Positions 5,903-45,181 of a stretch of DNA of 64,000 nucleotides are shown here, one piece after another (the first letter of the stretch is position 1; each line of letters opens with the position of its first letter). The stretch covers positions 929,846 through 993,845 of the forward strand of contig JBDKSB010000012.1 in NCBI GenBank assembly GCA_039683095.1. The letters are read 5' to 3'. The notes beneath the pieces are model-generated. The model saw only the letters and a program-made list of their open reading frames with translations, made no database searches and was not told the DNA's origin. This stretch comes from Acidobacteriota bacterium (lineage in GTDB: Bacteria; Acidobacteriota; Aminicenantia; Aminicenantales; Saccharicenantaceae). A program made the position numbers and the translations under genes.

Positions 5903-7297
5903 ATGAAGCCCAACGCTCGTTCCGGCGGACGGGTCTGTCCGGCGATCGTGTCGATGCTCGCCGCCGCGGCGGCCGTCGCCGCGGCAGGGGGCGCGGCAGG
6001 CCGCGAACGGATCCTGTTCAAGGCCCTGCCTCCGGCCGACCCGGCCAGGCGGATCATCCAGGCCGTTCTCGACTCGAGGTTCTACTCCATGCGCGACGGT
6101 TTCCCCGCGGCGGCATGGAGGGACCTCGGCTTCGGCGGCGCGTGGGAGCGGGCCCGGCGCTATTTCCCGGCCAGCGCCTATCTCGTCCGGCCGGGCTCCT
6201 ACTTCATGACCCACGGCTTCGACGCTGATGGCCGGCTGTTCATGGAGATCCACGAATCGGCCTACCTGGCCCTCTGCGTCGAGAACTTGCGGACGTTCAC
6301 GCCGGCCGCGATCGTCGGGGATTACGGCCGCATGCTGGCCGCGGCGAACGGCCGCGAAGCCGCGGCCTTCCGGGAGAAGCTGGGCCGGCTCGAGGCCTTT
6401 TTCCGGGACGAACCGGCTCATCGAGCGCTCCGAAAGACCCTGGGCGAGGATCTCTATCTGCGGCTGCTCAGGGAGCTGCGCGAGGAGGATTACCACATGC
6501 TCGCCGGCGGACTGATGCATGAGGGCATGCACGCCGGGCTGGACGACGCCGTGGTCGGCCGGCTCCAGGCCGGGTTCAGCGCCGGCCGCGGAACCGTCGA
6601 GTGGGACGAGCTGAGAGCCTTCATGGCCGAGATCGCCTGCCACCGGCCCTTCTGCGCCTGGGCCGCGGGCGATATCGCCGGCGCGTGGCGGCGGATCGAA
6701 GACCGGCTCGGCGAGCTCGAAGGCCTGCGGAAGAGACGGGGCCTGCCGGCGGGAGCCGGGCTGGCCCGTTTCGAGAAGGCCAGGGCCGGCGCCTGGACCG
6801 GGGCCGCCCTGATCCGGCTCCGGATGCGCGAGATCTGGCAGTCCGCCGGGCGCGGCCGGGACCTGGCCGCCGCGTTCCAAAAGGACTACGTCCAGGGGGA
6901 CATTCCCGCCGATATCGGGAACCTCCTGGCCAAGCTCGACCGCGACGCGGCCGGCTTCGCGGCCTCGGCCGGCGAAGCCATCCGGGCGACCGAGGTCGCG
7001 GTCCGTTCGCTCGAGGAGGTCCTGGATGCCTGGGGAGCCTGGGCCTCCGGACGCCGCCCTTATCCTCCCCCGGTCACGGACTCCCAGGCCGTTCTCAAAC
7101 AGGTCAGCGAGATACGCTGGCCGGAACCCGATGCCGGCGCGGCGGCCGCCCTCATGAAACGGGCCGGAGAAGAGCTGTCTAGGGAGAAGGCGTCCTGGTC
7201 AGGAGGCCTTCGACTCCCCACTTTCTCTCCGCGGCCAGGAAGCGGACGGGCTTCTTCGGCGGCACGAACGACATGGCCCGCTCGGCGAAGGCCGTGA
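5903..7297 (+). CDS. Hypothetical secreted or membrane-anchored protein with an HExxH motif (putative metallopeptidase-like)
   Basis: N-terminal hydrophobic segment PAIVSMLAAAAAVAAAGG, then LMHEGMHAG. The last ~40 codons overlap the convergent GMC gene and are low complexity, so the true 3' end is uncertain. Confidence 0.5.
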   Translation: MKPNARSGGRVCPAIVSMLAAAAAVAAAGGAAGRERILFKALPPADPARRIIQAVLDSRFYSMRDGFPAAAWRDLGFGGAWERARRYFPASAYLVRPGSYFMTHGFDADGRLFMEIHESAYLALCVENLRTFTPAAIVGDYGRMLAAANGREAAAFREKLGRLEAFFRDEPAHRALRKTLGEDLYLRLLRELREEDYHMLAGGLMHEGMHAGLDDAVVGRLQAGFSAGRGTVEWDELRAFMAEIACHRPFCAWAAGDIAGAWRRIEDRLGELEGLRKRRGLPAGAGLARFEKARAGAWTGAALIRLRMREIWQSAGRGRDLAAAFQKDYVQGDIPADIGNLLAKLDRDAAGFAASAGEAIRATEVAVRSLEEVLDAWGAWASGRRPYPPPVTDSQAVLKQVSEIRWPEPDAGAAAALMKRAGEELSREKASWSGGLRLPTFSPRPGSGRASSAARTTWPARRRP

Positions 7298-8846
7298 TCG
7301 ACAGGGCCGGATTGACGCCCAGGTTCTCCGGGATCTGGGAGCCGTCACAGACGATCATCCCGGCATAGCCTTTGACCCGGTTGCGCTCGTCGATGACGCC
7401 CTCCTCCGGGGTCGGGCCGAACGAGCAGCCGCCCAGGATGTGGGCCGTGATGGGCGCGCCCACCGTGACCTCGGTGATGACGTTGGCCGGGACCGCGTCC
7501 ATCCGCCTGGCCATCCGCCGCCCGAAATCGTTGCCGGCCGGGAGCCAGGTCGGGTTCCGGCGGTCCGTGCCGGGTTCGGAGACGAGGACCGCTTCTAACG
7601 GGGCATACCAGCGCCGGCGCCGCTTCAAATGGAAATAATTGTCGACCGTCTGCATGCCCAGCAGGATGATCGTCTGCCGGGCCCAGCCGGGCGGCCGGCG
7701 CAGGCGCAGATGGCGCAGGGGATGACGCAGCTCGTTGGCCAGCCAGCGCAGGACCCGGGGCGTCCTTTTGCCGCCGTCCGTCAGGGCGGCGACAAGCGCG
7801 CACATGACGTCATGTCCTTTCCCGAAGCGCACCGGTTCGAGGTGCGTGTCGGCGTCCGGGTGGACGCTCGAGGTGATGGCCACGCCCCGGCTGAAGTCGG
7901 CGTCCCTGGCCAGCGAGCGCACGCCGAGCATGGTCTCGCTGTTCGTCCGGGCGTACTTGCCGAGAGGCGCCGGCAGGTTCGGCAGCCGGCCCTTGCGCTT
8001 CATGTCGAGCAGCAGCGTGTTCGTGCCCAGGGCGCCGGCGGCGACGACCAGCGATTTGACTCGGAAGGTCAGGCCGCGCCTTCCCCGCAACAGGCCGGTG
8101 GTCTTCCGCGTCCGGACACGATACCCGTCGCTCCCGTCGGCGGAGAGCGGCTCGATATCGACGACCTTGTTCTCGGAGAAGACCCGGGCCCCGAACTTCT
8201 CGGCGAAGTAGAGATAGTTCTTGTCCAGGCTGTTCTTGGCGTCCTTGCGGCAGCCGGTCATGCACTCGCCGCAGAGCTCGCAGCCGATGCGGTCGGGCCC
8301 TTCGCCCTCGAAATAGGGGTCCGCCGCCGGCTCCCCTTCATGGCCGAAATAAACGGCCACGTCGGTCAGCCGGTAGGTGGCCTCGCGGCCGATCTCGGCC
8401 GCCGTCTCCTTCATCAGGACGTCCTGGGCCGTCTCGACCGGGTTGCGGACGATACCGAGCATGCGGCCGGCCAGGTCGTAGTAAGGCAGGAGTCCGGCCT
8501 TGCCGCCGAGCCGGCGGACGCTGGGGCGCTCGAAGAAGACGTCGGGCGGGACGTAGAGCGTGTTGGCGTAGTTGAGGCTGCCGCCGCCGACGCCGGCCCC
8601 GGCCAGGATGAAGGCCCCGTTGAGGAGGCGCAGACGCCAGGTGCCGTAGAGGCCGAGGCCGGGCATCCAGAGGAACTTGCGCAGGTTCCAGTTGCGGCGC
8701 GGGAACTGGTCGGCGTGCCAGCGCCGGCCGGCTTCGACGACGCCGACCGAATAGCCCTTCTGGGCCAGGCGCATGGCCGCGACGGAGCCGCCGAATCCGG
8801 ACCCGACGACCAGGCAATCGAAAACGAGCTCTTCGCTCTTCTTCAT
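7179..8846 (-). CDS. GMC family FAD-dependent oxidoreductase (cholesterol oxidase-like)
   Basis: N-terminal [20 protein letters not shown] Rossmann motif and a GMC C-terminal region [29 protein letters not shown], at 555 aa. Confidence 0.85.
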   Translation of the reverse strand: [555 protein letters not shown]

Positions 8847-8864
8847 TTTCCCCGAATGCGCCCC

Positions 8865-8893
8865 ACTTTACAGAAGACGGCCGGAGAGGTCAA
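8865..8893 (-). promoter_or_regulatory. Sigma70-like promoter TTGACC-N17-TAAAGT for the GMC oxidoreductase
   Basis: Minus strand reads cTTGACCtctccggccgtcttctgTAAAGTggggcgcattcggggaaaATG. Confidence 0.45.
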
Positions 8894-9018
8894 GGACGCG
8901 CATTGGCGCTGAGCGCCTTCAGGGCTTCGCGTCTTTGGTCTCCGGCCGTCGGGCCCCGGCTCGATAGAGCGGGATCCTCTTGAACGGCGGTCCGGATCGC
9001 GGTTGAGCGATAAGCCTC

Positions 9019-9047
9019 TTGACAGCCCCGCGTCCGTATAATATATT
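9019..9047 (+). promoter_or_regulatory. Sigma70 promoter TTGACA-N17-TATATT (overlapping TATAAT) in the AT-rich island upstream of the MerR-rSAM operon
   Basis: TTGACA at 9019-9024, TATAAT at 9037-9042, TATATT at 9042-9047. The surrounding sequence is ~30% GC in a 70% GC genome. Confidence 0.6.
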
Positions 9048-9049
9048 CG

Positions 9050-9059
9050 TGTACGTACA
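9050..9059. promoter_or_regulatory. Perfect 10-bp palindrome TGTACGTACA immediately downstream of the -10 (operator-like)
   Basis: Self-complementary with a GT-N-AC core typical of GntR/FadR-type operators. It is followed by the inverted repeat TATGAA-N6-TTCATA at 9065-9082. Confidence 0.4.
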
Positions 9060-9102
9060 TGTTATATGAAAATCTATTCATAATTGAACGCAAAGGTATA
9101 GA

Positions 9103-9831
9103 ATGAACAGAGACCTTCTAACCGTCCAGGACCTGGCCGACAAGGCCGGGGCCCCGGCCGAGCGTGTCGCGGAATGGACCAAGGTCAAGCTCCTCAAGCC
9201 CGACGGCTACGGCGAGAAGAAGTCCCCCCTGTTCTCCGTCTCGAGTCTCGAGCAGGTCGCCGTGGTCCAGCGGCTGGCCGATCTCGGCTACGGCACCGAC
9301 GAGATCATCAAGATCGTCAAGAGGGTCGGCCTGCCCCGCGACCGGCGCGGCAAGAAAAGGGCCCGCGACAAGGGCTACTTGACCGTCGGCAACCTGGCCG
9401 AGCGCTCCGGCGTCAGCCCGCGGACGATCAAGCACTGGGAGGACAAGGGCATCATCGAGCCCGACATGCGGACCGAGGGCGGCTTCCGGCTCTACTCGGA
9501 ATCGTACGTCATCCTCTGCCAGCTCATCCGCGACCTCCAGCTCTTCGGCTACTCGCTCGAGGAGGTCAAGGCCATCTCGGACGATGTCCGGACGCTCCTG
9601 GCCATCGAGGCCGAACTCGAAGCCTACCCCCAGGCCGAGGTCGAGAAGCGGCTGGCCGCGATGCTCGAGGCCATCCGGGGCCTCTCCGACAAGATGAAGC
9701 TTCTGGAGGAGGGCATCGAGCGCTGGCGCGACCTTCTCAAGAAGAAGAAAAAGGACATCGTCGCCCTCCAGGGCCGGAACCAGAAGCGCGGGAAAGCCGC
9801 CAAAGAAAATAAGGAGAAGAGCCATGCATAA
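9103..9831 (+). CDS. MerR family transcriptional regulator with two tandem MerR HTH domains, a coiled coil and a Lys-rich tail
   Basis: HTH1 is LTVQDLADKAGAPAERVAEW...LGYGTDEI. HTH2 is LTVGNLAERSGVSPRTIKHWEDKGII...FGYSLEEVKAI. The C-terminus is LLKKKKKDIVALQGRNQKRGKAAKENKEK. SD aaagg lies upstream of ATG 9103. Confidence 0.8.
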   Translation: MNRDLLTVQDLADKAGAPAERVAEWTKVKLLKPDGYGEKKSPLFSVSSLEQVAVVQRLADLGYGTDEIIKIVKRVGLPRDRRGKKRARDKGYLTVGNLAERSGVSPRTIKHWEDKGIIEPDMRTEGGFRLYSESYVILCQLIRDLQLFGYSLEEVKAISDDVRTLLAIEAELEAYPQAEVEKRLAAMLEAIRGLSDKMKLLEEGIERWRDLLKKKKKDIVALQGRNQKRGKAAKENKEKSHA

Positions 9832-11263
9832 GATCGTCCTCATCGAGCCGAAGGCCCCGAACCTGCACATCTTCTCCCAGTTCCCCCTGCCGCGGCTGGG
9901 GACCCTCATCCTCGGGACGATGATGAAGAAGCTCGGCTGGGAGGTCGAGGTCTTCGTCGAGGACTTCCGCAAGGTCGATTACGACGTCATCGCCGAGGCC
10001 GACCTCGTCGGCATCTCGACCATCACGTCCACGGCGCCACGGGCCTACGCCATCGCCGACCGGGTCCGGATCATGCGCATCCCGGTCATCATGGGCGGGC
10101 CCCACGTCACCTACCTGCCCGACGAGGCGATGCAGCACGCCGATTTCGTCGTCCGCGGCGAGGGCGAGGCGGCCCTGGCCGCCTTCATCGACGCCCGCGA
10201 GAAAGGGAGGGGCTACGCCGACGTACCCAGCCTCTCCTACCGGGACGCCTCCGGCGCCGTCATCCACAACCCCCTGGCGCCCCGGGCTTCGGACCTCGAC
10301 CGCATCCCCTTCCCCGACTTCTCGCTCCTGCGGCCCGATGCGAAGGGCACGAAGCATATGTCCTCCATCCCGGTCATGACCTCGCGGGGCTGCCCTTTCG
10401 ATTGCTCCTTCTGCTCGGTGACCGGCATGTTCGGGCGCAAGTACCGCTTCCGCTCGACCGCGAACATCATCGAGGAGCTGCGCCGCTATTCGGGCCGCAA
10501 GACCATGGTCTTCTTCTACGACGACAACTTCGCCGCCGACCCGGAACGGACCCGCGAGCTGTGCCAGGCCATGATACGGGAGGAGATCCGGATCCGGTGG
10601 ACGACCCAGGTCCGGGCCGACGTCGCCCGCGACCCGGATCTCGTCCGCCTGATGAAGGAATCCGGCTGCCACACCGTCTACATCGGCTTCGAATCGGTCA
10701 ACCCGGACGCGCTCCAGGAAATGCACAAGAAGCAGACCGTCGCGGAGATCGCCCGGGCCGTCCGGGTGTTCCGGCAGAACGGCATTCACATCCACGGCAT
10801 GTTCGTCCTCGGCTTCGACCAGGACGACTGGAAGACAGTGCGCAAGACGGTCCGCTGGGCCAAGCGGGCCCGGCTGACCTCGACCCAGTTCCTCATCCTG
10901 ACGCCGCTGCCCGGCTCGGCCTTTTACGACCGGATCGCCGCCGAGCACCGCATCACCTTCCACGACTGGGCCCTCTACGACGCCCACCACGCCGTGTTCC
11001 AGCCGGCCCGCTTCTCGCTGCCCGACCTCCAGAAGGCCCAGAGCTTCGCCCACCGCAAGTTCTATTCGCTCAAGGGTTCGGTCCGCAAGGTCCTGTCCGG
11101 CCAGTGGCTGGCCCTCGGGATCGCCCACTACGCCAGGCATCTCGACAGGGCCTGGAAGAAGAAGAACCGGACCTTCCTCCGGGCCGCCGCCCTCCTCAAG
11201 CCCCGGCCGGGCTCCCGGGCGAAAGTGTCGGTGGATTACCGGGAGGACGTCAGCCTCGAATAA
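9824..11263 (+). CDS. B12-binding-domain radical SAM protein (class B rSAM)
   Basis: N-terminal B12-binding fold (VLIEPKAP...GISTITS...) and radical SAM motif SRGCPFDCSFCS (CxxxCxxC). The start overlaps the MerR stop by 8 nt. Confidence 0.9.
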   Translation: MHKIVLIEPKAPNLHIFSQFPLPRLGTLILGTMMKKLGWEVEVFVEDFRKVDYDVIAEADLVGISTITSTAPRAYAIADRVRIMRIPVIMGGPHVTYLPDEAMQHADFVVRGEGEAALAAFIDAREKGRGYADVPSLSYRDASGAVIHNPLAPRASDLDRIPFPDFSLLRPDAKGTKHMSSIPVMTSRGCPFDCSFCSVTGMFGRKYRFRSTANIIEELRRYSGRKTMVFFYDDNFAADPERTRELCQAMIREEIRIRWTTQVRADVARDPDLVRLMKESGCHTVYIGFESVNPDALQEMHKKQTVAEIARAVRVFRQNGIHIHGMFVLGFDQDDWKTVRKTVRWAKRARLTSTQFLILTPLPGSAFYDRIAAEHRITFHDWALYDAHHAVFQPARFSLPDLQKAQSFAHRKFYSLKGSVRKVLSGQWLALGIAHYARHLDRAWKKKNRTFLRAAALLKPRPGSRAKVSVDYREDVSLE

Positions 11264-11327
11264 GGGACGCTCCGAACCGTTTACATGCCCCTCCGTATCA
11301 ACTAGAATATTCTGGAATTTTATCCCT

Positions 11328-12062
11328 ATGGAGTCGCCCATGCCCAATGTCCTGACCGTCCGGGGACTGAAAAAGTCCTACGGCACCCAGCACGCCCTGG
11401 CCGGCATCGACTTCGATGTCCGCGTTGGCGAGGTCTTCGCCCTGATCGGCCCGAACGGGGCCGGCAAGACCACGACCCTCCGCATCGTCGCCACCCTGCT
11501 GACCTCGACCGCCGGCGAGATCTCCTTCCTCGATCACGACCTCGGCAAGGATCCCGATTTCGTCCGGGAGAAGATCAGCTACCTGCCGGAAGAAGCCGGC
11601 GCCTACAAGGACATGAAGGGCCTGGATTACCTTCATTTCATGGCCAACTTCTACGCCCGGACGCCGGAGGAGGAGAAGGAGTTCGTCCGCCGCGCCGTCG
11701 AGATCACCGAGCTCGGCGACCGCCTGTCGACCAAGGTCGGCACCTACAGCAAGGGCATGACCCGCAAGCTCCTCCTGGCCCGGGCCCTGATGACCAAGCC
11801 CGTGCTGGCCATCCTCGACGAGCCGACCTCGGGCCTCGACGTCCTCAACGCCCTGGAGGTCCGGGAGATCGTCCGCCGCTACGTCAAGGAGGGGACGTCG
11901 GTCCTGCTCTCTTCCCATAACATGCTCGAGATCGAGTTCCTGTCCGACCGGGTCGGGCTCATCAACAAGGGCCTGATCCTCGACACGGGCACGCCGGCCG
12001 AGCTCAAGGACAAGCACGCGGCCAAGAACCTCGAAGAGGTCTTCAGGAGTTCCCTCCGATGA
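11328..12062 (+). CDS. ABC transporter ATP-binding protein (ABC-2 type)
   Basis: Walker A GPNGAGKTTT, signature YSKGMTRKL and Walker B ILDEPTSGLD. The alternative start at 11340 (MPNVLTV) is also possible. Confidence 0.9.
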   Translation: MESPMPNVLTVRGLKKSYGTQHALAGIDFDVRVGEVFALIGPNGAGKTTTLRIVATLLTSTAGEISFLDHDLGKDPDFVREKISYLPEEAGAYKDMKGLDYLHFMANFYARTPEEEKEFVRRAVEITELGDRLSTKVGTYSKGMTRKLLLARALMTKPVLAILDEPTSGLDVLNALEVREIVRRYVKEGTSVLLSSHNMLEIEFLSDRVGLINKGLILDTGTPAELKDKHAAKNLEEVFRSSLR

Positions 12063-13354
12063 AAAGATTCACCAACCTTTTAAAGAAAGAGATCAAGGAG
12101 CTGGCGACCAAGCAGCTGGTCGTCTCGCTCGTCTTCACCGTCGTCCTGTTCAACTTCATCGGACAGGTCAGCAGGAAGGAGGTCCAGAAGGCCGTCGGCA
12201 TCCAGACCATCTCGGCCCTCGACCAGGACGGCACGCCCGCGTCGCAGGCCCTGATCAAGGGCCTCGAGTCGGCCCGCTTCAAGGTCCTTGACCAGTCGGG
12301 CAAGACCAAGGATCAGGCCCTCGAAACGGCCAGGGCCGGCGAGTCCAAGCTCCTCCTCGTCATCCCCAAGGGCTTCGGCGACTCCCTCCGGGAGCTCAAG
12401 CCCAGCGAGATCGAGACCTACTCCTTCATGCGCAGCTTCTCGCTCATCGGGGCCCGGGGCCAGGTCGTCGTCCAGGGCGTCATCGCCGCCCTCAACGAGG
12501 CCGTGTCCAACGAGTTCCTGGCCCAGCGGCTGCCCGGCCTCGACCCGGCCAGCCTCAAAAAGCCCATCCGGAGCCGGGACTTCGTCGTCGTCAGGGACCG
12601 CGTGGCCGAAGGCTCGGCCAACATGGTCGCCGGCCTGATCTCCCAGCAGTCCATGCTCATCCCCATCGTCCTGATGATGATCGTCATCTATTCCTCGCAG
12701 ATGGTCATCTCGGCCGTGGCCCTGGAGAAGCAGAACAAGACCCTGGAGACGCTCCTGACCGTGCCCATCAAGCGGACTTCGATCATCACCGCCAAGATGC
12801 TGGCGGCCGGGCTCGTCGGCCTCATTTCGGCCGGCGTCTACATGTTCGGCTTCCAGGGCTTCGTCGGCGGCATCGGTGAAGAAGCGGCCCGGGCGGGCGC
12901 CCAGGACGGCGGGGCGGCGCTGATGCAGAAGCTCGGCCTGACCTTCAGCACGGGCGGCTACGCCATCCTCGGCCTGTCCATCTTCCTGGCCATCCTGGTG
13001 GCCCTCGCGGCGGCCATGATCCTCGGCGTCCTGGCCGAGGACCTTCGCAGCGCCCAGAGCATGATGATGCCGCTCATGTTCATGGTCATGATCCCCTACT
13101 TCATCTCGCTGTTCGCCGACCTGAACACGATGTCGCTGCCGCTCAAGGTCTTCGTCCTGGCCATCCCGTTCACGCACCCCTTCCTGGTCTCGCAGAACCT
13201 CTACCTCGGCAACTACGGCCTGATCGCCGCCGGGCTCGGCTATATGCTCCTCGTGTTCGTGGTCCTGGTGATCTACGCGGCCAGGATCTTCTCGACGGAC
13301 AAGATCCTGACCATGAAGCTGCGCTTCGGCAAGAAGAAAGCGGCCGCCGCCTGA
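12059..13354 (+). CDS. ABC-2 family transporter permease
   Basis: ATGA overlap with the ATPase gene. N-terminal TM, a large extracytoplasmic loop, then five C-terminal TM helices. Confidence 0.8.
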   Translation: MKRFTNLLKKEIKELATKQLVVSLVFTVVLFNFIGQVSRKEVQKAVGIQTISALDQDGTPASQALIKGLESARFKVLDQSGKTKDQALETARAGESKLLLVIPKGFGDSLRELKPSEIETYSFMRSFSLIGARGQVVVQGVIAALNEAVSNEFLAQRLPGLDPASLKKPIRSRDFVVVRDRVAEGSANMVAGLISQQSMLIPIVLMMIVIYSSQMVISAVALEKQNKTLETLLTVPIKRTSIITAKMLAAGLVGLISAGVYMFGFQGFVGGIGEEAARAGAQDGGAALMQKLGLTFSTGGYAILGLSIFLAILVALAAAMILGVLAEDLRSAQSMMMPLMFMVMIPYFISLFADLNTMSLPLKVFVLAIPFTHPFLVSQNLYLGNYGLIAAGLGYMLLVFVVLVIYAARIFSTDKILTMKLRFGKKKAAAA

Positions 13355-13359
13355 GGGCC

Positions 13360-14535
13360 GTGACGACCGATCCGGCCAGGCAGGTCCGGTCACCGATCGC
13401 CTTCGCGGTCGGGGCCCGGACCCTGTCCAATACCGCCTACCGGATGGTCTACCCGTTCCTGCCGGTCTTTGCCCGCGCCTTCGGGGTCGACCTGGCGACC
13501 ATGTCGATCGCCCTGTCGGCCCGCTCCGCCTCGGGCGCGCTGGGCCCCCTCCTCGCCCCATTCACGGACCGGCACGGGCGGCGGTTCGGCCTGACCCTCG
13601 GGCTGGGCCTGTTCGCGGCCGGGGCGTTCCTGGGCGCCGTCGGCCCGGGCCTTCCGGGCTTCGCCGCCGCCCTCGTCCTGATGACCGTCGGCAAGTACGT
13701 CATCGACCCGGCCATCCTGGCCCACCTGAGCGACCTCGTGCCCTACGGTCGGCGCGGCCGGGCCCTGGCCCTGACCGAGCTCAGCTGGTCCCTGGCCTTC
13801 ATCGCCGGCGTGCCGGCCGCCGGCTTCCTCATCGGCCGCTTCGGCTGGCGGTCGCCCTTTCTTGCCCTGGCCGTCCTGGGCCTGGCCGGGCTCGTCGTCG
13901 TCCGGATCGGCGCGGGGATGCCGGCAGCGGGGGCGGCCGGCGCCGCGGGCCATCGCGAAAGCTTCAGGTCCGTGTTCCGGTCGGGCCCGGCCCTCGCGGG
14001 GATCGCCGCCATACTGGCCGTCAGCGTCTCGAACGAGCTGGTCAACTTCGTCTTCGGCGCCTGGCTCGAGGACTCCTTCGGGCTCAAGCTGGCCGGCCTC
14101 GGGGCCGCGGCGGCGGCCATCGGCCTGGCCGAGTTCGGCGGCGAAAGCCTGGTCGCGGCCTCGATCGACCGGATCGGCAAGATGAAGGCCCTGATGACCG
14201 GCCTGGCCGCCAACGCCGTCGCGGCCGCCGTCTTGCCCCTGGCCGGCCGCACGGCCGCCCTGGCGCTCATCGGCCTGGCCCTCTTCTACCTGACCTTCGA
14301 GTACACGGTCGTCAGCATGCTTCCGGTCATGAGCGAGATCCTGCCCCAGGCTCGGGCGACGCTTCTGGCCTTCTACGCCGCGTCGTTCTCGGTCGGCCGG
14401 GCCATCGGGTCGCTGGCCTCCCCCCGGCTCTACGGCCTGGGGTTCCCGGCCGTGGCCCTGGCCGCGGCCGGCCTCAACGCCGTCGCCTTCCTGTTCCTGG
14501 TCCGCCTGCGCCGCCTGACCGTCGGCAGGCATTGA
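13360..14535 (+). CDS. MFS transporter
   Basis: 391 aa with 12 predicted TM helices and a typical MFS N-terminus (YRMVYPFLPVFARAFGV). Confidence 0.85.
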   Translation: MTTDPARQVRSPIAFAVGARTLSNTAYRMVYPFLPVFARAFGVDLATMSIALSARSASGALGPLLAPFTDRHGRRFGLTLGLGLFAAGAFLGAVGPGLPGFAAALVLMTVGKYVIDPAILAHLSDLVPYGRRGRALALTELSWSLAFIAGVPAAGFLIGRFGWRSPFLALAVLGLAGLVVVRIGAGMPAAGAAGAAGHRESFRSVFRSGPALAGIAAILAVSVSNELVNFVFGAWLEDSFGLKLAGLGAAAAAIGLAEFGGESLVAASIDRIGKMKALMTGLAANAVAAAVLPLAGRTAALALIGLALFYLTFEYTVVSMLPVMSEILPQARATLLAFYAASFSVGRAIGSLASPRLYGLGFPAVALAAAGLNAVAFLFLVRLRRLTVGRH

Positions 14536-14581
14536 CAAGGGCTCTCCGTTCCTGCCAAGATAGGCCCGAAAGGGAGGGGTC

Positions 14582-14830
14582 ATGCACATCCTGTGGACCA
14601 TTGTTCTGGGGTTGCTGGCCGGCATCATCGCCAAGCTCATCTATCCCGGCAAGGAGAACATGAGCTGGCTCTGGACGATCGTCCTGGGCATCGCCGGTTC
14701 GTTCGTCGCCACCTATCTCGGCAAGCTCGTCGGCATCTACAAGCCCGGCGAGACGGCCGGCTTCATCGGCGCCATCGTCGGCGCGCTGATCCTGCTCTTC
14801 ATCTACGGCCTGATCAAGAAAAAGGCCTGA
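14582..14830 (+). CDS. GlsB/YeaQ/YmgE family stress-response membrane protein
   Basis: 82 aa with two TM segments and the WTIVLG...GIIAKLI / GAIVGALILLFIY pattern typical of transglycosylase-associated proteins. SD gggagggg lies upstream. Confidence 0.85.
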   Translation: MHILWTIVLGLLAGIIAKLIYPGKENMSWLWTIVLGIAGSFVATYLGKLVGIYKPGETAGFIGAIVGALILLFIYGLIKKKA

Positions 14831-15086
14831 GGGCCGCTCCACCAAAGGCAAGGCTGGAGCCAATGGGGAAACGAAGTCGGTTGTAGCGCCGCAAGAGCAT
14901 TTCCCGGCTATCAAGGCGGAGATTTGGAAGCTAAAAAACAACTAAGCCTTCTTGAAAAGCAATCGCGTTTTGTTATCAGGCATTAATCGCCCCGCCCTTG
15001 GGATCGCCGGGCCATGGATAGCTTATGTGCCCCGTCTCCTATGCGTGCGGCTATTGCGGACAACCGGCGCATTCGAACTCTGAGCT

Positions 15087-15680: not shown

Positions 15681-18600
15681 TCAATCTCGCGACGGGAGGC
15701 TCCGGAGCACGCCGACGGGGCCCAGGAGGCCCGAGGGCAGGAGCGGCGAATCCTTCGCATAATGTTTCCAGGTCGAGAAGGCGAGGCGGCCGGAGGACGG
15801 GCGCCGTTCGCCATTGAGGATCCAATCCGGCCAGCGGACGAGGTTTCCGTCCGGGCCATACTCGGCGTCGGCCGGTTCGCGCTCGTCCCCGATGAGCCGG
15901 TTGGGCCAGAGGTTGGCGACCCGGACCTCCAGGCGGTTGCCTTTCGGCCTAACCGCGGCCGTGATCTCGACGCGCCAGGGATCGCACCAGACGACGCCGA
16001 GGTCGCGGCCGTTGAGCCGGACCGAGGCGATGTTCCTGACCGTGCCGAGATCGAGCCAGAGCCGGGCTCCCTCGCCCGAAGAGTCCGTCGCGGCCGCCGC
16101 GAGATCGAACGTCCTGGCGTAGACTGCCTGCCCCGAATAGTACTTGATGCCGTCCTCCGGCCTCCGGCTCCAGTCGGCGAGCTGGTCGAAAACGACGCGG
16201 GACGGCCCGCCCCGGGTCGGATCGAAAGCGACGTCCCAGGGGCCATCGAGCGAGACGAGTTTCTCGAGCGCGGGGAAGTTCTCCGGCGCCGCCGGGCCAG
16301 CTGCGGAAGCGGCGGGCGGATCCGCCAAGACGCCCGGGACCGACGCCGCCCGATCGCGGAACACGATGAAGAAGGATTGGCGCGGCTCGAACCTCAAGGG
16401 GACGGATGTCGATCCGCCAGCAGCCTCGTACCGGGCCAGATCGCGGGTCGTCCCGTCGATGGGGTCCAAGAGATCGGGCCGCTTGCCGCTCGTCCGGAAC
16501 CGGGCCGTCGTTTCGACCGGCGCGGCATCGGGATTGGCCACGAAATAGATGTCCGTGCCGCCGTCCCGGCGGTGGATCCAGCGCAGGGGGATGTCCGAGG
16601 CGAAGTCCGGCGCGACACGCATCCTCTCGAGCGCCGACATAACGACCGCGAAATCGCCGTACTGGGCGGGTTCGTCGAGGGGCGGCCGGCCGACGTTCCA
16701 GGTTGTCCCGGGCGAAGAAAGGGGTTCAGCCGGGCATGTTCCCGCCTGGCCCCTGACCCAGACGACGCGGCCCCGGCCGAAGGCATGCTCCGTGACTTTC
16801 TCCCCGTCGCAATCGCCCCAGACCTCGACGGCCAGACGCTCGACCTCGGCGTCGCAGGCCGGGTATCCGGCCAGCGACGGCGACCTCCGCGGCGGCGGCC
16901 CGATGACCGTGGCGCCGGCGGCGACCAGGCCGCGGACCTTCCGGAGCAGGACGGGCGTCATCGTCTCGCGCTCGGGCAGCACGAGGACGCGATAGCTCAT
17001 GCCGTCCGGGAAAACGATCCGTCCGTCCTTGACGGAGGCGGAGGTCATGAACGTATCCGGCGGGCAGCCGTCGAAGGCCGGCCCGGCCGGTCCCGGAGGA
17101 TCGCCCCGGAGCGCCGAGGCCGGCGGCCGGAAAGCGTGCGGCGCGCCCTCGGCGACGAGGAAGCAGACGTCGGCGACCGGCAGTCCCCGCCGCAGCATGA
17201 ACTGGCAGCGGGCCAGGTAGCGGTGATAGGCCGGGACCATGTCCCACCAGGTCTGGGTCCGCTCCCAATGGACCCCGTATGGGCCCATGGTCAGGCCCGG
17301 CTTCGTCGCCAGCCCGGCCTGGTGCTGCGAGCGATGGAAGACGATCCGGTTGACGCCCGACGCGAAGGCCCAATCTCCCAGGGCCTTGATCGACGCCGGA
17401 TGGGCCTGCCAGGCCTCCCGGTCGTCCGAGGTGAAGGACTCGGCGGCGACGATCGGCCGGCCGTTGGTGTAGGCGATGCCGGCGGCCTCGATGATGCTGT
17501 GGGCCGTGTGGAAGCCGGACAGCCAGAACTCGCCCATGGGCACGTCGGCGACGGCGCCCAGGGACATGTCGGAGCACGGCGTCATGTCATAGGGCTCGAT
17601 CGACACGCTGAAGCCGTCCCGGCGGCCGAGGTCCTTGAGACGCCGGGCGTGGTTCTCGAGGACGAGCTCGTTGGCCGTCTGCCTCAGGTCCCAGAGGAAG
17701 CGCTCGGAGGTTTCCATGTCCTTGACCGGACGGCCGGTGACCGCCGGCAGGAAGGGCAGGAGATCGTAGCCGCGGCGCGCCAGGAATTCCTCGCGGAAGG
17801 CGGCGGTCCAGTTCTGCGCGCCCATCTCCCAGCTGTCGATGTGAAGCATCGTCCATCCGGCCCGGCCGTCCGTCCGGCGCGGTCCGACCTCGCGAAGCAG
17901 GGCCCCGACGAAGGCATCGTAATGGGCGTCGAAGGCGGCCGCGTCGAGCTTGTCGCACTCGAGGCCGAGGCCGGGCACGGGCGCGGGCCGGGTGTTGGCG
18001 CCCGTCGTCACCCGTCCGAAGCGCAGGATGGTCCAGCGGCCGGCCGGGACGTCCCAGACGATCCGGCCGTCGGCCGCGAGCTTGCCGGTCAGGTCCACGA
18101 TCCGCGCCGGGTCGACGGCCGCGCCCGCCGGCAGGGCGGGGAACACGGCGGGCATGGGCAGGAAGGGTTTGACCCCCGGCTTCGAGGAATATGGTTCCCG
18201 GACGTAGAGGGCTTTCTCGTCGATGTCGGCGATGGCCGGCCCGGCCGACGGCGTGGGGAAGGCCAGGAGGGCGACGTCGCGGTAGAACCCGTCCATCGTT
18301 TTCTTCAGCTCCGCGGGCAGGGAGTCCTCGCCGAAGTAGGCCGGACGCCGCGACGGGCGGGGCAGGACCGCGTCGAAGCGGGACGGGCCGGAGGTCTCGA
18401 CAGCGGCGGCGACGATGTGCTGCATGGACTGCTCGGGCTTGACCCAGGGCCCGCCGGAGCCCGTCCAGCCCGGACCGGCGTTGAGCGTCACCTCGAGGCC
18501 GAGCCGCTCGGCCTCCCTGACGACGTGCTTGAACAGGCCGCGCCAGGCCGGGCCCATGAACTCGACCGGGCCGCGCGGCACCCCGACGTTGACCTCGCAG

Positions 18601-18830
18601 ATGACGACGCCGCCGAGGCCGGCGTCGCGCAGGGATTCGAGGTCGGCGGTGATGCCCTCCCGGCTCAGGTTGCCGTCCATCCACATCCAGTAGGCCCAGG
18701 GCCGGGCGGAATCTGGCGGCCGGGCGAAGCCGGCCGCGAGCGGATCGGACGAAGGCCGTTTCGACACCCTGGCTGCGGCCGGCTCGCGGACGCAGGCGGC
18801 GGCGAGGAGGAGGAAGACCAGCCCGGCCAT
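15681..18830 (-). CDS. Large secreted glycoside-hydrolase-like protein (lipoprotein-type signal); family uncertain
   Basis: Start re-assigned to MAGLVFLLLAAAC (ATG 18830); the ORF-track start is 18875. Carries an N-terminal PWAYWMWMDGN motif and GITADLESLRDAGLGGV, with a beta-sandwich-like C-terminus, at ~1050 aa. Confidence 0.55.
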   Translation of the reverse strand: MAGLVFLLLAAACVREPAAARVSKRPSSDPLAAGFARPPDSARPWAYWMWMDGNLSREGITADLESLRDAGLGGVVICEVNVGVPRGPVEFMGPAWRGLFKHVVREAERLGLEVTLNAGPGWTGSGGPWVKPEQSMQHIVAAAVETSGPSRFDAVLPRPSRRPAYFGEDSLPAELKKTMDGFYRDVALLAFPTPSAGPAIADIDEKALYVREPYSSKPGVKPFLPMPAVFPALPAGAAVDPARIVDLTGKLAADGRIVWDVPAGRWTILRFGRVTTGANTRPAPVPGLGLECDKLDAAAFDAHYDAFVGALLREVGPRRTDGRAGWTMLHIDSWEMGAQNWTAAFREEFLARRGYDLLPFLPAVTGRPVKDMETSERFLWDLRQTANELVLENHARRLKDLGRRDGFSVSIEPYDMTPCSDMSLGAVADVPMGEFWLSGFHTAHSIIEAAGIAYTNGRPIVAAESFTSDDREAWQAHPASIKALGDWAFASGVNRIVFHRSQHQAGLATKPGLTMGPYGVHWERTQTWWDMVPAYHRYLARCQFMLRRGLPVADVCFLVAEGAPHAFRPPASALRGDPPGPAGPAFDGCPPDTFMTSASVKDGRIVFPDGMSYRVLVLPERETMTPVLLRKVRGLVAAGATVIGPPPRRSPSLAGYPACDAEVERLAVEVWGDCDGEKVTEHAFGRGRVVWVRGQAGTCPAEPLSSPGTTWNVGRPPLDEPAQYGDFAVVMSALERMRVAPDFASDIPLRWIHRRDGGTDIYFVANPDAAPVETTARFRTSGKRPDLLDPIDGTTRDLARYEAAGGSTSVPLRFEPRQSFFIVFRDRAASVPGVLADPPAASAAGPAAPENFPALEKLVSLDGPWDVAFDPTRGGPSRVVFDQLADWSRRPEDGIKYYSGQAVYARTFDLAAAATDSSGEGARLWLDLGTVRNIASVRLNGRDLGVVWCDPWRVEITAAVRPKGNRLEVRVANLWPNRLIGDEREPADAEYGPDGNLVRWPDWILNGERRPSSGRLAFSTWKHYAKDSPLLPSGLLGPVGVLRSLPSRD

Positions 18831-19091
18831 GATCGGAATTCGGGGCGGAAGGCGGAACGGGCATCGGCGCGACATGGCACTCTCCTCTCGCCCCCCTTAT
18901 ATCACTCGCGCGCCGGTCGTCAAGGATGAAGGCCGGCCGGCCGTGAAGGCGGGATCGACCGCCTCCTCGGGGACGCCGGCGGACTTGACAACGCCCCCTT
19001 TTAAACTGAATATAGGGACAACTCTGAAGGAGGCCATCATGGGGAATCATCGAGGTCTCGTTCTGCGTTTCCATCCCGCCCGGAGGGTCTC

Positions 19092-20696
19092 ATGAAACCC
19101 GCTCAGCTGAAGATCGCCGGGGGCGTCCTGGTCGCCCTGGGCCTCGTGCTGGGCGTCCTGGCGTTCCTGCTGGGATCCGGCTCCCCGAAGGGAGAGCTGT
19201 CGCTGGACCTCAAGTTCAAGGACCGGGTCGTCAGCGGGGCCTACAAGGCCTACGGGGCCCGCGAATGCCCCGTGCCTATGTGGCTGGCCAAGTCGGTCTT
19301 CCGCAACGAGACCGGCCGGCGCCTGACGAACCTCCGGGTCCGCTACCGCGTCTCCGAGTACGCCGAATCCGACTGGAACAACTGGCACAAGTACGCGGCC
19401 GTGGACCCGGGGCAGACGGTCGTCGACCTCTACTATCCCATCTTCACCGCCCAGACGGCCCGCCTGACCAGCCGGGCCCCGGCCGACCTGTCCGTCGAGT
19501 ACGAGTACACGGACGGCGGCGGCCGGAAGAAGGAATTCTCCGATACGCGCCGCCTGACGATCATGAGCCGCTACGAGTTCTTCTTCTCGGACATGACCGC
19601 CGAGGAGCGGACGGGCGCCTTCCAGGATTCCGACACCAATTATCCGCTGATGGCGGCCTGGGTCTCGCGCAGCGACGACGCCGTGGTCGGCCGCCTGGCC
19701 TCGCTGGCCAACAAGAAGGCCGGCGGGCTGGGCGCCTCGGAGAGCGACGAGGCCTGCATCGAGGTCCTGGGCCAGCTCTACGAGCTGATGCGGGCCATCC
19801 ACGTCAGCTACCAGCACCCGCCGAACCTCCAGGACCCTAACATGTCCTACGACATCAAGTCGGTCCAGAGCCTGCAGTTCCCCCGCGACACGATCGAGAA
19901 GCGCAGCGGGACCTGCATCGACCTGGCCATCCTGATGGCGGCCATGATGAACTCGGTCAACATCGAGCCCATCCTGGTCAGCATGGACGGCCACTGCTTC
20001 CCCATGGCCCGCCTGCCGCAGAGCCGCAAGTTCGTCCCGGTCGAGGCCACGGGGGTCGGCGACGGCTACACCAAGAGCATGAGCTTCGCCGAGGCCAACA
20101 AGAGCGCCCTGGAGACCTGGAACAAGATCAACCGGACCGGACGCTATAACCTCATCGACGTCCGGGCCTTCTGGACGCAGGGCATCGGCAACCCCGAGCT
20201 CGACCCGCTGCCGCCCGACATCCTGGAGAAATGGGGCATCATGGACCTGGCCGAGCGGGGCGGCGGAGGTGGCGGAGGCGGCGGCCGGCAGCCCGCGCGG
20301 AGCGGCGGCGGGCCGGCGCCCCAGCCGGTCCGGGGCGGCCTGTCCGGCAACTGGGGCTGCCAGCTGACCATGCCGACGGGCCAGGGCGTGACCGGGGCCT
20401 GCCAGATCATCCAGCAGGGCAGCCAGGTCCAGCTCGTCTTCCGCTTCGCCTACCAGCAGATGGGCCAGGACGGAATGATGCACCAGGTCCAGGAGGTGAA
20501 CGCCTTCCAGGGCACCTTCGACGGCGCCGCCATCCAGGCCGTCTGCAACCAGTCCCAGGTCGCCATCGACGGCGCGGCCGTGCCGGGCCAGGGACTGCCC
20601 TATCGCATCGTCCTCCAGGTCGTCCAAGGCGGCCTGCAGGGCCAGTTCGCCAACGCCACGGGCGTCACGGCCAGCCTCGTCCTGGTGCGCCAATGA
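19092..20696 (+). CDS. Membrane-anchored transglutaminase-like (cysteine protease fold) protein with a poly-Gly linker and a Gln-rich C-terminal domain
   Basis: N-terminal TM IAGGVLVALGLVLGVLAFLL. Transglutaminase-like core RSGTCIDLAILMAAMMNSVNIEPILVSMDGHCFP (Cys...His). Then G9 (ERGGGGGGGGGRQ) and a Q/V-rich C-terminus. Promoter TTGACA-N17-GAATAT is at ~18977. Confidence 0.6.
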   Translation: MKPAQLKIAGGVLVALGLVLGVLAFLLGSGSPKGELSLDLKFKDRVVSGAYKAYGARECPVPMWLAKSVFRNETGRRLTNLRVRYRVSEYAESDWNNWHKYAAVDPGQTVVDLYYPIFTAQTARLTSRAPADLSVEYEYTDGGGRKKEFSDTRRLTIMSRYEFFFSDMTAEERTGAFQDSDTNYPLMAAWVSRSDDAVVGRLASLANKKAGGLGASESDEACIEVLGQLYELMRAIHVSYQHPPNLQDPNMSYDIKSVQSLQFPRDTIEKRSGTCIDLAILMAAMMNSVNIEPILVSMDGHCFPMARLPQSRKFVPVEATGVGDGYTKSMSFAEANKSALETWNKINRTGRYNLIDVRAFWTQGIGNPELDPLPPDILEKWGIMDLAERGGGGGGGGGRQPARSGGGPAPQPVRGGLSGNWGCQLTMPTGQGVTGACQIIQQGSQVQLVFRFAYQQMGQDGMMHQVQEVNAFQGTFDGAAIQAVCNQSQVAIDGAAVPGQGLPYRIVLQVVQGGLQGQFANATGVTASLVLVRQ

Positions 20697-29098: not shown

Positions 29099-32000
29099 TC
29101 AGTCCGTCTTGCGCCGGCCGGCGATCAGGCTGTAGATCGCCGGCGTGGCGATGAGCGACAGCAGGACGGAGATGGCCAGGGCCCCGATGACGGCGATGGC
29201 CAGCGGCCGGAGCATGTCGGCCCCCGAGCCGATGCCGTAAGCCAGGGGCAGCATCCCCAGCGCCGCGGCCAGCGAGGTCATCAGGACCGGCCGCAGGCGC
29301 CGCCGGCCCGAGCGGATGAGGGCCTCGGCCAGGTCCATGCCTTGGGCCCGGTGCTCCTTGACGAGATCGAGCATCAGGATGCCGTTCTTGGCCACGATGC
29401 CGACCCCGATGATGGCCCCCAGCAGCGAGACGACGTTGAGCGATGTGCCCGTGATCCAGAGGGCCAGGATGGAGCCGAACATGGCCAGCACGGCTCCGAG
29501 CACGATGGCCAAGGGCTCGGCGAACGACCCGAACTCGAGCAGGAGCACGGTGAAGACGAGGAAGACGGCCAGCAGCAGGACGATGACCAGGTTGCGGAAC
29601 GATTCCTGCTGCTGCTGGTAAAGGCCGGCGTACTCGACAGTCCCCGGCGGCAGCGTCTTATCCGCCCTGAGCACGCGCCGGATCTCGGCCATGGCGCTGC
29701 CCATGTCCCGGCCCTCGAGGCGGGCCGTCACGGCCACGTCCTGGCGGAAATCGTCGCGGCGCAGCTCGAGCTGGCCCGGCTCTTCGACGACGTCGACGAC
29801 CTGGTCGAGCTGGATGAGGGCCCCGTCGGCCGAGCGCAGGGGCAGGTGGCGGAGCTTCTCCAGCCGGTCGATCCGGCCCGGCTCCGCCTTGACCCGGATC
29901 TCGATGACCCGGTCGCCTTCGAGCACGGTCGAGGCCGTCTCGCCCAGCATGGCGCCGTTCACCGCGGCGGAAATGGCCTCGGCGCTCAGGCCGAAGCGCC
30001 CGGCGTCGACGGGCCGGACGCGGAAGCTGATCGTCGGTCCCGTGTAGACCAGGCCGTCGAAGACGTCGACGACGCCCGGCACCTTCTCCAGCGCCGCGGC
30101 GACATCGGGGGCCTTCGCCTTCAGGAAGGCCGTGTCGGTCGAATAGATCCGGGCCTCGATCGGCTGGGGCGAATACATCAGGTCGCCGATGAGGTCCCCG
30201 AGGATCCCCGGGAACTCCCAGATGATGCCGGGCAGGGCCGCGTTCAGGCGGTGCCGCAGCTCGGTCAGGACCTCTTCCGTGGACCGCTTGCGGCCGGGCT
30301 TCAGCTTGAGCAGGAAGTCGCCGTTGTTCGGCTCGGTAATGAACAGGCCCAGCTGGGCCCCGGTGCGGCGCGAGTAGCTTTCGAGCTCGGGCACCGAGCG
30401 GATGATGTCCTCGGCGTACCGGAGCTGGCGATGGGTCTCGGCCAGGCTCGTCCCCGGCGGGGTCAGGTAATCGATGACGAAGCCGCCCTCGTCCATCGGG
30501 GGCAGGAATTCGCTCCGGAGCCCGCGATAGAGGGCGAAGGCCAGGACGATGACGACGACGCAGAGGGCGATCGTGACCCAGCGCTTCCGGAGCGCCCACC
30601 GGACCGCCGTCTCGTAGATCCGGATGACCCGCCGCAGCAGCGGGCCCTCGTCCGGGCCGGCTTCCCCGGCTACCGCCCCCGGCGCGGGCAGCAGCCAGCC
30701 AGCCAGCGAAGGCGTCAGCGTCACGGCCAGGACGAGAGAGGTCAGGAGGGCGACGACCATGGTCAAGGCCAGGGCCCGGAAGAAAACGCCCGTGATCCCG
30801 CTCAGGAAGGCCAGGGGGATGAAGACGACGACCGGGGTCAGGGTCGAGCCGACAAGCGGCCGGACGAGATCACCCGAGGCCTCGCGGATGGCCGTCAGCC
30901 GGTCGAGGCCGGAGCGGCGCTTCGTATGGATGGCTTCCACGACCACGATGGCGTCGTCGATGACCAGGCCGATGGCGGCGGCGATCCCGCCCAGGGTCAT
31001 CAGGTTGAAGGAAAGCCCGGCGGCCTTGAGCGAGACGAGCGTGACCAGGACGGTGACCGGGATGACCAGGATGGCCACGAAGGTCGTCCGCCAATTCTTC
31101 AGGAAGAGGAAGAGGATCAGGACGGACAGGACGAGCCCGAAGATGATGGCCTCCCAGACGCTCCGGACGGAGGCCCGGACGAGCAGGGACTGATCATAGA
31201 AGAACGACAGCTTCAGGTCGGACTGAAGCTCGCCCTTGAGCGCCGCGAGGTCGGCGGTCAGGGCCTTGGCGATGTCCAGGGTGCTGCCGTCGGGCTGGCT
31301 GTAGATGTTGAGGAGGACGGCTTCCTGGCCGTCGGCGGTGACGTAGTTGAACACCGGCTCCGGCCCGCGCTCGACCCGGGCGAAGTCGCGGACGAGGACC
31401 GGGTGGCCGCCGGCGACCGTCACCGGGAAGCTCTCGATGTCCCGGATGGAGTGGACGCGGCCGTCGACGACGGCCAGGTAGAGCATCCGGTTCTCCTCGT
31501 GGAGCCCGGTCGAGGCGACGAGGTTGTTCTTGTTCAGGGCCTCCGTCACTTCGGCCAGCGTCAGCCCGGCGGCTTGGAGGCGCAGCGGGTCGACGACGAT
31601 GTGATATTCGGGCGCGCGGCCGCCGACCAGGGTCACCCGGGCGATCCCGGGGATCTGGAGGAAGCGCGGCTTGAGCTTGTAGCGGGCCGTCTCCCAGAGA
31701 TCGACGAGGCTCCGCCTGGGGCTGGTCAGGCTGACCCCGATGATGGGGAAGTTCGAGAAGGTGACCCGGTAGACCTCGGCCTCGGCCGTCGGCGGCAGGG
31801 AGGCGCGGATCTGGGACAGCCGTCCGAGCACGTAGAGCTCGGACTGGACCATGTCGACTTTCCAGCTGAAAAAGACGTTGACCTCGGCCGAGCCGCGGCC
31901 CGTGGCCGAGCGGATGGTCTTGACGCCGGGGATATCCTTCATCCCCTCTTCGATCGGCCGGGTGATGGCGGCCATCATCTCGTCGGCCGGCATGACGCCG

Positions 32001-39372: not shown

Positions 39373-39447
39373 GCTCGACCTCCTTGTAATGCTTGCGGAT
39401 CGGATGCGGCCCGGCCGGATCGGAGCCCGGGTCCGCTCAATGCCCCG

Positions 39448-41871: not shown

Positions 41872-41905
41872 CGTTCCTCCTTCGGGATTGGGACGGCCGC
41901 CGGCA

Positions 41906-41944
41906 ACTTTACCTCGCCCCTGTCCCCCTGTCAACGCCTTGACA
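41906..41944. promoter_or_regulatory. Palindromic -35 pair TGTCAA-CGCC-TTGACA, plus -10 TAAAGT (minus strand), in the divergent GH51 / exonuclease region
   Basis: The perfect inverted repeat at 41929-41944 supplies a TTGACA to both strands. On the minus strand it reads TTGACA-N17-TAAAGT ahead of GH51. The spacer contains GGGGGACAGGGG, the core of the window's repeat family. Confidence 0.4.
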
Positions 41945-41988
41945 TCCGACCGCGATCTGGGTAACCCTTATCGCCGGAAGACGATATC

Positions 41989-45073: not shown

Positions 45074-45085
45074 CTTCGGCCTCCT

Positions 45086-45181
45086 AAAATGGGGGACATG
45101 ATACCCGTTTCCTGTTTTCTCGCCTGTCGAAAAGGCGGGATATGACGCCGATTCCTGATCCTCCCGGAATGATATCATAGC
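45086..45181 (-). repeat. Composite repeat element, copy A (~95 bp): full unit, degenerate unit, partial unit. Lies in the GH127 5' region and includes that gene's SD-proximal sequence.
   Basis: 45086-45119 aaaatgggggacatgatacccgtttcctgttttc. 45130-45155 aaaaggcgggatatgacgccgattcc. 45161-45181 ctcccggaatgatatcatagc. The reverse complement aligns with the composites at 52144-52216 and 55312-55380. Confidence 0.7.

Follow-up and report, generated by a model that had tools for sequence, protein, structure and literature searches.

The locus and the loci compared

A 64-kb stretch of Acidobacteriota DNA (68% GC; referred to here as the window) carries six co-directional genes, which encode a MerR-type regulator with two helix-turn-helix (HTH) domains, a class-B, that is, cobalamin (B12)-type, radical S-adenosylmethionine (SAM) enzyme (hereafter rSAM), the ATPase and permease of an ATP-binding cassette (ABC) exporter of the ABC-2 type, a major facilitator superfamily (MFS) transporter and a small GlsB-type membrane protein (Table 1). 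A preliminary description of the window had taken all six as one system on the strength of their tight junctions. Here, we describe how comparison with related loci narrows this unit to the MerR and rSAM genes, and set out a model in which the two would form an autorepressed operon.

The six open reading frames (ORFs), with their junctions and domain calls, were confirmed by an ORF check and Pfam. The MerR and rSAM genes overlap by 8 nt, the ATPase and permease genes overlap at an ATGA, and 5 nt separate the permease stop from the start of the MFS gene. For the ATPase the probable start is 11340, with GGAG at 11329 and a gene call of 240 aa in locus L001, which would leave a gap of 76 nt between the rSAM and ATPase genes. 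The encoded proteins were further compared with NCBIfam and by AlphaFold and Foldseek, and loci of relatives were fetched, 80 further ones being gathered by a metagenome scan with an alignment of the MerR protein, to give 167 loci (~700 kb) in all. Pair adjacency was counted in the 77 loci with enough sequence, and downstream genes in the 45 informative loci, those reaching more than 900 nt beyond the rSAM stop. An identical rSAM protein was found on a Logan contig with matching gene order, and the named homologues come from Candidatus Aminicenantes and Acidobacteriota.

An invariant MerR-rSAM pair

The rSAM gene lies directly after the tandem-HTH MerR gene in all 77 loci, with the identical 8-nt overlap in 72 of them. 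Codons 2-3 of the rSAM gene contain the MerR stop, and a conserved AAGGAG, placed within the Ala-Lys-Glu codons of the MerR gene, precedes the rSAM ATG by 7-8 nt. Across Aminicenantes both proteins show strong conservation: in the best 120 database clusters the rSAM is 69-94% and the MerR protein 72-95% identical to those of the window, and in the fetched loci identity reaches down to 66% (rSAM) and ~54% (MerR). The first two relatives to be compared (rSAM 75% and 70% identical) keep the pair and the same overlap but not the ABC genes, and are followed instead by a BNR/sortilin gene on the opposite strand or by a PpiC rotamase gene. Upstream neighbours of the pair differ among the 77 loci. As read from these sequences, MerR and rSAM form a translationally coupled pair that is always together across the uncultured Aminicenantes loci examined; it belongs to the conserved chromosomal make-up of the class and is not a mobile island. 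The other genes are less constant, with ABC genes in about two thirds of the loci, the MFS gene variable and the GlsB gene shifting in position.

Table 1. Genes and putative regulatory sites of the six-gene region (window positions)
Feature	Position	Strand	Details
Predicted sigma-70-type promoter of the MerR-rSAM operon	9019-9047	+	TTGACA-17 nt-TATATT; 11/12 consensus positions
Inverted repeat, left arm	9048-9059	no strand	window CGTGTACGTACA; family consensus CCTATRCGTWCA
Inverted repeat, right arm	9085-9096	no strand	window TGAACGCAAAGG; family consensus TGAACGYATAGG
MerR regulator gene	9103-9831	+	242 aa; MerR_1 in two stretches (71.5 bits), MerR 50.5 bits
Class-B rSAM gene	9824-11263	+	479 aa; B12-binding PF02310 60.8 bits, Radical_SAM PF04055 91.1 bits
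Promoter-like site of the ABC genes	11280-11308	+	TTTACA-17 nt-TAGAAT; 10/12 matches
ABC ATPase gene	ORF opens 11328, likely start 11340, ends 12062	+	ABC_tran PF00005, 96 bits
ABC-2 permease gene	12059-13354	+	ABC2_membrane_3 PF12698, 126.5 bits
MFS gene	13360-14535	+	GTG start; MFS_1
GlsB/YeaQ/YmgE-type small membrane protein gene	14582-14830	+	Transgly_assoc

Promoter and inverted repeat upstream of MerR

The predicted promoter of the pair is close to the sigma-70 consensus, and the same layout (CTTGACA, 17 nt, TATATT) is shared by 71 of the 76 distinct upstream regions among related loci. It is followed by two inverted 12-nt copies, CCTATRCGTWCA-N25-TGAACGYATAGG, which enclose ~25 AT-rich nucleotides and keep a fixed start-to-start distance of 37 nt. 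The left arm begins right after the -10 hexamer and thus overlaps the expected transcription start; in L114 and L115 it is fully palindromic (CCTATACGTATAGG). The right arm takes in the AGG of the ribosome-binding site and ends 6 nt before the MerR ATG. In the 167 fetched loci, the exact 12-mer is confined to these two arm positions, a regulon search of the same loci returned no further operator targets beyond the MerR promoter, and within the window both 9-mer and 12-mer matches stay at chance level. One perfect 9-mer, ACGCATAGG, occurs at window 15038-15046 (minus strand) in the convergent intergenic region between the GlsB and DUF4126 genes, within a match count that equals chance.

The AT-rich island at 8890-9093 is, on this sequence evidence, the MerR promoter and operator. 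The small minus-strand ORF over the same positions, which the preliminary description had already set aside, is not a gene, as it overlaps both conserved elements. An RNA leader or riboswitch was also rejected, as Rfam returned nothing for the window with gathering thresholds or for 8850-9200 with E <= 1, and so was an RNA stem: RNAalifold on 51 leader sequences gave 0 pairs, and the variable R/Y position of the arms does not covary (GT 24, AT 20, AC 14, GC 12), its A-C mismatches occurring at chance frequency. Because there is no covariation, RNAalifold structure or Rfam family, the repeat is better read as a DNA site than as an RNA stem.

A tandem-HTH regulator without a sensor domain

The MerR protein consists of winged-HTH units at residues 1-75 and 92-160, a coiled-coil helix at 177-241 and a Lys/Arg-rich tail. 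That two complete HTH domains precede the coiled coil, as was first proposed from the sequence, is borne out in three ways: residues 7-73 alone match the full MerR_1 profile (23.5 bits, cut-off 21.6), the two halves of the protein align with each other (E = 3e-08), and the AlphaFold model (mean pLDDT 82) contains two winged-HTH units, a disordered basic linker at 80-89 and a single 65-residue helix. By sequence and model, then, the tandem is real; such duplication is uncommon yet has a precedent in the NCBIfam ‘fused homodimer type’ HspR model. The best fold matches of the model are CueR, MtaN, BmrR and the sensor-less NmlR, with CarH and HiNmlR also among the matches, and the long predicted helix after the HTH units is that expected of a MerR-family dimerization helix. 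Neither an effector-binding domain nor metal-binding cysteines were found in the protein, which has no further domain beyond the helix and a single invariant cysteine, Cys139. The modelled fold is therefore canonical but without a sensor domain. Among relatives, the second HTH domain is nearly invariant and the basic tail is conserved.

All comparisons with NCBIfam equivalogs stay under their cut-offs (score/cut-off: HspR 33/105, fused HspR 26/300, FtsR 40/150, CarH 23/400, NmlR 25/175, TnrA 27/140). The classical MerR mechanism, in which a dyad operator sits within a 19-20 bp spacer and DNA distortion brings about activation, does not fit here either, the spacer being 17 nt in the window and most relatives and the arms lying downstream of the -10 hexamer. 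The weak matches to FtsR (in two stretches) and BldC (25 bits), together with a second HTH as invariant as would be expected of a protein with many targets, bring up the alternative that this MerR is a global DNA-binding factor of the BldC/FtsR kind which happens to lie upstream of the rSAM gene, the enzyme merely sharing its promoter. We give this only a slim chance: both matches fall far under the family cut-offs, the operator 12-mer is confined to the regulator's own promoter in the ~700 kb of related loci and the 64-kb window, and an overlap fixed at 8 nt speaks for selection on co-expression.

A class-B radical SAM enzyme outside the curated families

The rSAM carries its CxxxCxxC motif at C190, C194 and C197, invariant across 50 sequences. 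Its AlphaFold model (pLDDT 92) matches MgmA, TsrM and AprD4 in Foldseek with E-values of 3e-27 to 1e-24 and TM-scores of 0.67-0.74 (normalized to query length), and these nearest solved structures are 18-22% identical to it. The modelled fold is a genuine class-B one, with cobalamin binding and use as predictions. Each of its 28 NCBIfam matches falls under the respective cut-off, among them (score/cut-off) HpnJ at 165/578, HpnR at 126/650, BchE at 158/481, PhpK at 152/600, MgmA (TIGR04014) at 104/360, the ladderane rSAM at 119/360 and BzaD at 85/450. By these scores the enzyme belongs to no curated NCBIfam family, the families compared not including the GrsA/B, Gmm, Tes and Mss clades. This agrees with a position outside the characterized clades and with the preliminary view that its function is not deducible from sequence; literature searches on MerR with B12-rSAM, or on Aminicenantes with radical SAM, returned nothing relevant.

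Could the pair mature a ribosomal peptide (RiPP), or serve as an anti-phage defence module? In NCBIfam, the rSAM weakly matches ApyD, a RiPP enzyme (142 bits, cut-off 750), and PADLOC returns mad1 (HTH, 54 bits) and, in part, mad3/mad8 (ABC ATPase). Both ideas are very improbable. In agreement with the preliminary description, which saw no precursor peptide, no small ORF is conserved beside the pair in the 77 loci, and the rSAM lacks SPASM or peptide-recognition Pfam domains; the PADLOC matches are at the domain level only, other MADS components are absent and the pair, as noted above, is not mobile.

Beyond Aminicenantes, a search of 1.84 billion cluster representatives with the rSAM returned ~8,000 below E = 1e-30, the best of them outside the enzyme's own cluster being only 48% identical and deriving from Eremiobacterota, Dadabacteria, Deferrisoma and others. 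Relatives of 41-47% identity examined in species genomes (L007-L014; Spirochaetales, Deltaproteobacteria, Nitrospirae, Thermoleophilia) are stand-alone genes, with neither a MerR gene nor common neighbours beside them. Many of the outside relatives, 40-47% identical, are 600-640 aa long; 4 of 19 have a DUF2229-like C-terminal extension (best 44 bits), one has a LiaF-type transmembrane tail and a few show sub-threshold STAS matches. The ether-lipid enzyme Ger/PlsA contains DUF2229 (PMC13159169), and the matches to this domain give the sole positive hint, a weak one, of a lipid substrate. The relatives outside Aminicenantes (P0246-P0332) also include giant proteins, 2,000-2,600 aa long, with several copies of the rSAM unit.

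Transporter genes with a putative promoter of their own

In the window, the ABC ATPase and membrane protein are encoded together, as expected of an ABC-2 type exporter, and the preliminary description had paired this exporter with the rSAM. The related loci do not sustain the pairing. A promoter-like element, TTTACW-N17-TAGAAT, precedes the ABC genes in 33 of 34 distinct upstream regions, and in L152 and L154 as well, flanked upstream by a conserved GAACSG and with CCGTAT in its spacer; the gap between the rSAM and ABC genes ranges from 64 to 1480 nt, and other genes follow the rSAM in other clades. ABC genes come after the rSAM in 30 of the 45 informative loci, to which one apparent fusion may be added, and unrelated genes do so in five. 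They are absent after the rSAM in L002, L005, L006, L162 and L165, and in a clade where a PpiC-type rotamase lipoprotein gene (~340 aa) takes their place at a distance of 81-111 nt (nine loci: L158, at 6231-7262, and L003, L148, L155, L157, L159, L163, L164 and L167). Three closer relatives, with 80-84% rSAM identity, keep the ABC genes; one of these lacks the MFS gene and two have DUF5916 inserted before the GlsB gene. The MFS gene is missing from L085, L089, L091, L094 and L096. In two loci from one sample, L086 (9581-11608) and L087 (9512-11532), the ABC ATPase and permease genes are in fragments, which suggests assembly frameshifts or gene decay.

A hairpin-like pattern lies between the rSAM and ABC genes in 8 of the 34 distinct upstream regions. 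In L152 it is a GC-rich stem of 13 pairs, of which the plus-strand tail is not T-rich, and a terminator role is putative. GC-rich palindromic hairpins of the form GGGGACAYGTAC...GTACRTGTCCCC stand between units in L152 (6163-6191), L142, L154, L118 and L091, and part of the hairpin arm in relatives resembles CGTACATG of the MerR operator arm. The GGGGACA...TGTCCCC hairpins of relatives are absent from the window.

In one sub-clade, an MFS homologue 62-68% identical to that of the window is located directly upstream of the MerR gene and in the same direction (L162, 1271-2365; L166, 438-1541; L161, 12-179).

Unexpectedly, the rSAM gene is a mosaic in some loci. The loci L123, L107 and L118 resemble L096 and L097 in MerR (82-90% identical), ATPase (93-97%) and permease (81-90%), yet their rSAM is only 73-76% identical to that of L096 and L097 and stands at 84-86% to that of the rotamase clade, a clade in which MerR identity is only 67-71%. 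At the DNA level, L123 and L096 share 83-93% identity across the MerR gene, the first ~370 nt of the rSAM gene and the ABC genes, which falls to 61-82% over approximately rSAM codons 125-425 (L123 5086-5982), where L123 is nearer to L157. The catalytic core of the enzyme has therefore been swapped between lineages by homologous exchange in an otherwise stable locus.

On the six-gene view, the rSAM would modify a lipid or small molecule, which the ABC-2 exporter and MFS transporter would flip or export, with MerR in control of the whole. Its case consists of the co-directional genes and tight junctions, the ABC genes after the rSAM in 30-31 of 45 loci, the MFS homologue upstream of MerR in L161, L162 and L166, and the rSAM-ABC gap of the window, which contains no hairpin. 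We nevertheless consider it unlikely. The ABC genes have a conserved promoter-like element of their own, and their distance from the rSAM gene varies against a fixed -8 nt between MerR and rSAM; GC-rich hairpins stand between the units in some relatives; the ABC genes are missing after the rSAM in the rotamase clade and five other loci, and the MFS gene from five; the operator 12-mer was not found near the ABC genes in any of the 167 loci; and the rSAM core has been exchanged independently of them. Separate transcription had been named beforehand as the finding that would speak against a six-gene unit, and as far as sequence alone can tell, it is largely what these loci indicate. The ABC-2 exporter, MFS transporter and GlsB protein are probably the products of separately promoted neighbours kept in one sub-lineage.

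With regard to the wider surroundings in the window, a GMC oxidoreductase gene, cholesterol oxidase-like (NF058674 603 bits, cut-off 850), lies at 7179-8846 on the minus strand, divergent from the MerR promoter, and is found at the same place in many ABC-clade loci. Other genes encode glycoside hydrolases (GH106, GH127), an AcrB-type RND pump and a hybrid histidine kinase (15681-18875, 42635-45436, 29099-32164 and 55391-58459, all minus strand), and no genes for lipid, cobalamin or tetrapyrrole pathways were seen near the six genes. Three long plus-strand ORFs, 36562-41964, 5903-7297 and 19092-20696 (1800, 464 and 534 aa), have no Pfam match; at 68% GC some may be spurious, and L001 has a gene call for that of 534 aa.

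A model for the MerR-rSAM operon and its weighing

We propose, with a probability of roughly 55%, that the functional unit is an autorepressed two-gene MerR-rSAM operon with the enzyme as its output and the transporters as separate neighbours. The starting point of the model is what the loci display: two coupled genes, a promoter with the repeat behind it, and a further, separate promoter-like site ahead of the ABC genes. In this model, a strong sigma-70 promoter would drive the sensor-less tandem-HTH MerR and, by translational coupling, the class-B rSAM; MerR would bind the two 12-nt arms over its own transcription start and ribosome-binding site and keep the operon repressed until a signal releases it; and the enzyme would methylate or rearrange an unactivated carbon of a cellular substrate other than a ribosomal peptide, with lipid or acyl chains as a first guess. 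Autorepression is suggested because the promoter is near consensus with an optimal 17-nt spacer, for which activation of the MerR type would not be needed, and because both the start site and the ribosome-binding site lie under the arms. Speculatively, the long helix and the four HTH heads of a dimer could span arms 37 bp apart.

Several points weigh against this model. The ABC genes do follow the rSAM in most of the informative loci, and since no hairpin separates the two in the window, read-through into them is possible there; the MFS homologue upstream of MerR links this transporter to the pair in a second arrangement, so that the pair may yet have a tie to transport. We infer MerR binding to the repeat, repression and the nature of the substrate from sequence, and the promoters and operator are themselves sequence inferences. 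An arm spacing of 37 bp sets the repeat apart from classical MerR operators, so that a different protein could bind it, and the left arm of the window fits only 10 of the 12 consensus positions. Finally, the lipid hint is a weak one that comes from domain matches of distant relatives and not from the rSAM of the window.

The signal itself is where another proposal departs from autorepression with the enzyme as mere output. By analogy with the pairing of GlnR/TnrA and glutamine synthetase, the state of the rSAM cofactor or substrate (cobalamin, Fe-S, SAM) might set the DNA binding of MerR through direct contact. The bicistron glnR-glnA is a known combination of regulator and enzyme. In line with this proposal, the MerR protein has no effector domain and a conserved basic tail, the invariant translational coupling favours equimolar co-production, TnrA and GlnR are among its sequence and fold matches, and some distant rSAM relatives have weak, sub-cut-off tails resembling STAS, a partner-switching domain. 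Contact between MerR and rSAM is predicted by analogy, though, the relatives of the enzyme in other phyla (L007-L014) stand alone without MerR, and the swapping of its core while MerR stays argues against tight co-adaptation, so we regard the proposal as unlikely. In its boldest form, which is somewhat less likely again, the pair would be a new kind of switch, with the rSAM as sensing partner of a sensor-less, four-headed MerR dimer, as in GlnR and glutamine synthetase. If true, the switch would tie gene expression in Aminicenantes to cofactor, SAM or redox state. The rSAM may, with less support than the switch, be a stress-regulated alkyl-chain methylase of anaerobic Acidobacteriota; if true, it would be an enzyme of the type being sought in connection with branched tetraether lipids.

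Anoxic sediments harbour Aminicenantes in abundance, and no member of the group is in culture. The regulator-enzyme pair, found with a fixed putative operator at each MerR copy in the fetched loci, offers a handle on how they sense and respond, and a substrate for the rSAM would annotate a large branch of uncharacterized cobalamin-type rSAM proteins, that of the ~8,000 cluster representatives mentioned above. The locus also illustrates how tight junctions in a single genome overstated a functional unit, which comparison cut from six genes to two.

Comparison with known systems

The exporter resembles NatAB and DrrAB in that an ATPase (208 bits to a DrrA subfamily model) and an ABC2_membrane_3 permease are joined via ATGA; it differs in scoring under the subfamily cut-offs and in lying outside the invariant pair. 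The rSAM has an N-terminal B12-binding domain, the CxxxCxxC core and the overall fold in common with HpnJ, BchE, PhpK and MgmA, the MgmA structure 9ccb being the nearest solved one (120 bits by profile search, TM-score 0.67-0.76). It misses the curated cut-offs of these enzymes 3- to 5-fold, is 15-22% identical to solved structures and does not lie near genes for hopanoids, bacteriochlorophyll, phosphonates or methyl-coenzyme M reductase. In CarH/LitR, a MerR HTH is fused to a PF02310 cobalamin domain, whereas the B12 domain of the present pair is part of a complete rSAM enzyme separate from the regulator, and the CarH model scores 22.6 bits on the window MerR (cut-off 400).

For the regulator, the fused homodimer type of HspR (NCBIfam NF047377) and FtsR/Rv1828 provide precedents for a duplicated MerR unit in one polypeptide. 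The window MerR is weakly similar to the C-terminal domain of Rv1828 and, in two stretches, to FtsR, with 25.8 bits against the fused HspR model (cut-off 300) and 40 bits against FtsR (cut-off 150), and its context has neither the dnaK operon of HspR nor the odhI-ftsR cluster of FtsR (PMC6683498). The sensor-less regulators of the NmlR/AdhR type and GlnR/TnrA, like the window protein, combine a winged HTH with a coiled coil and have no C-terminal ligand domain. GlnR is, moreover, encoded directly upstream of an enzyme gene. In contrast to these regulators, the protein described here has two HTH domains per chain and a helix about twice as long, and the arms of its putative operator lie 37 bp apart downstream of the -10 hexamer rather than within a 19-20 bp spacer.

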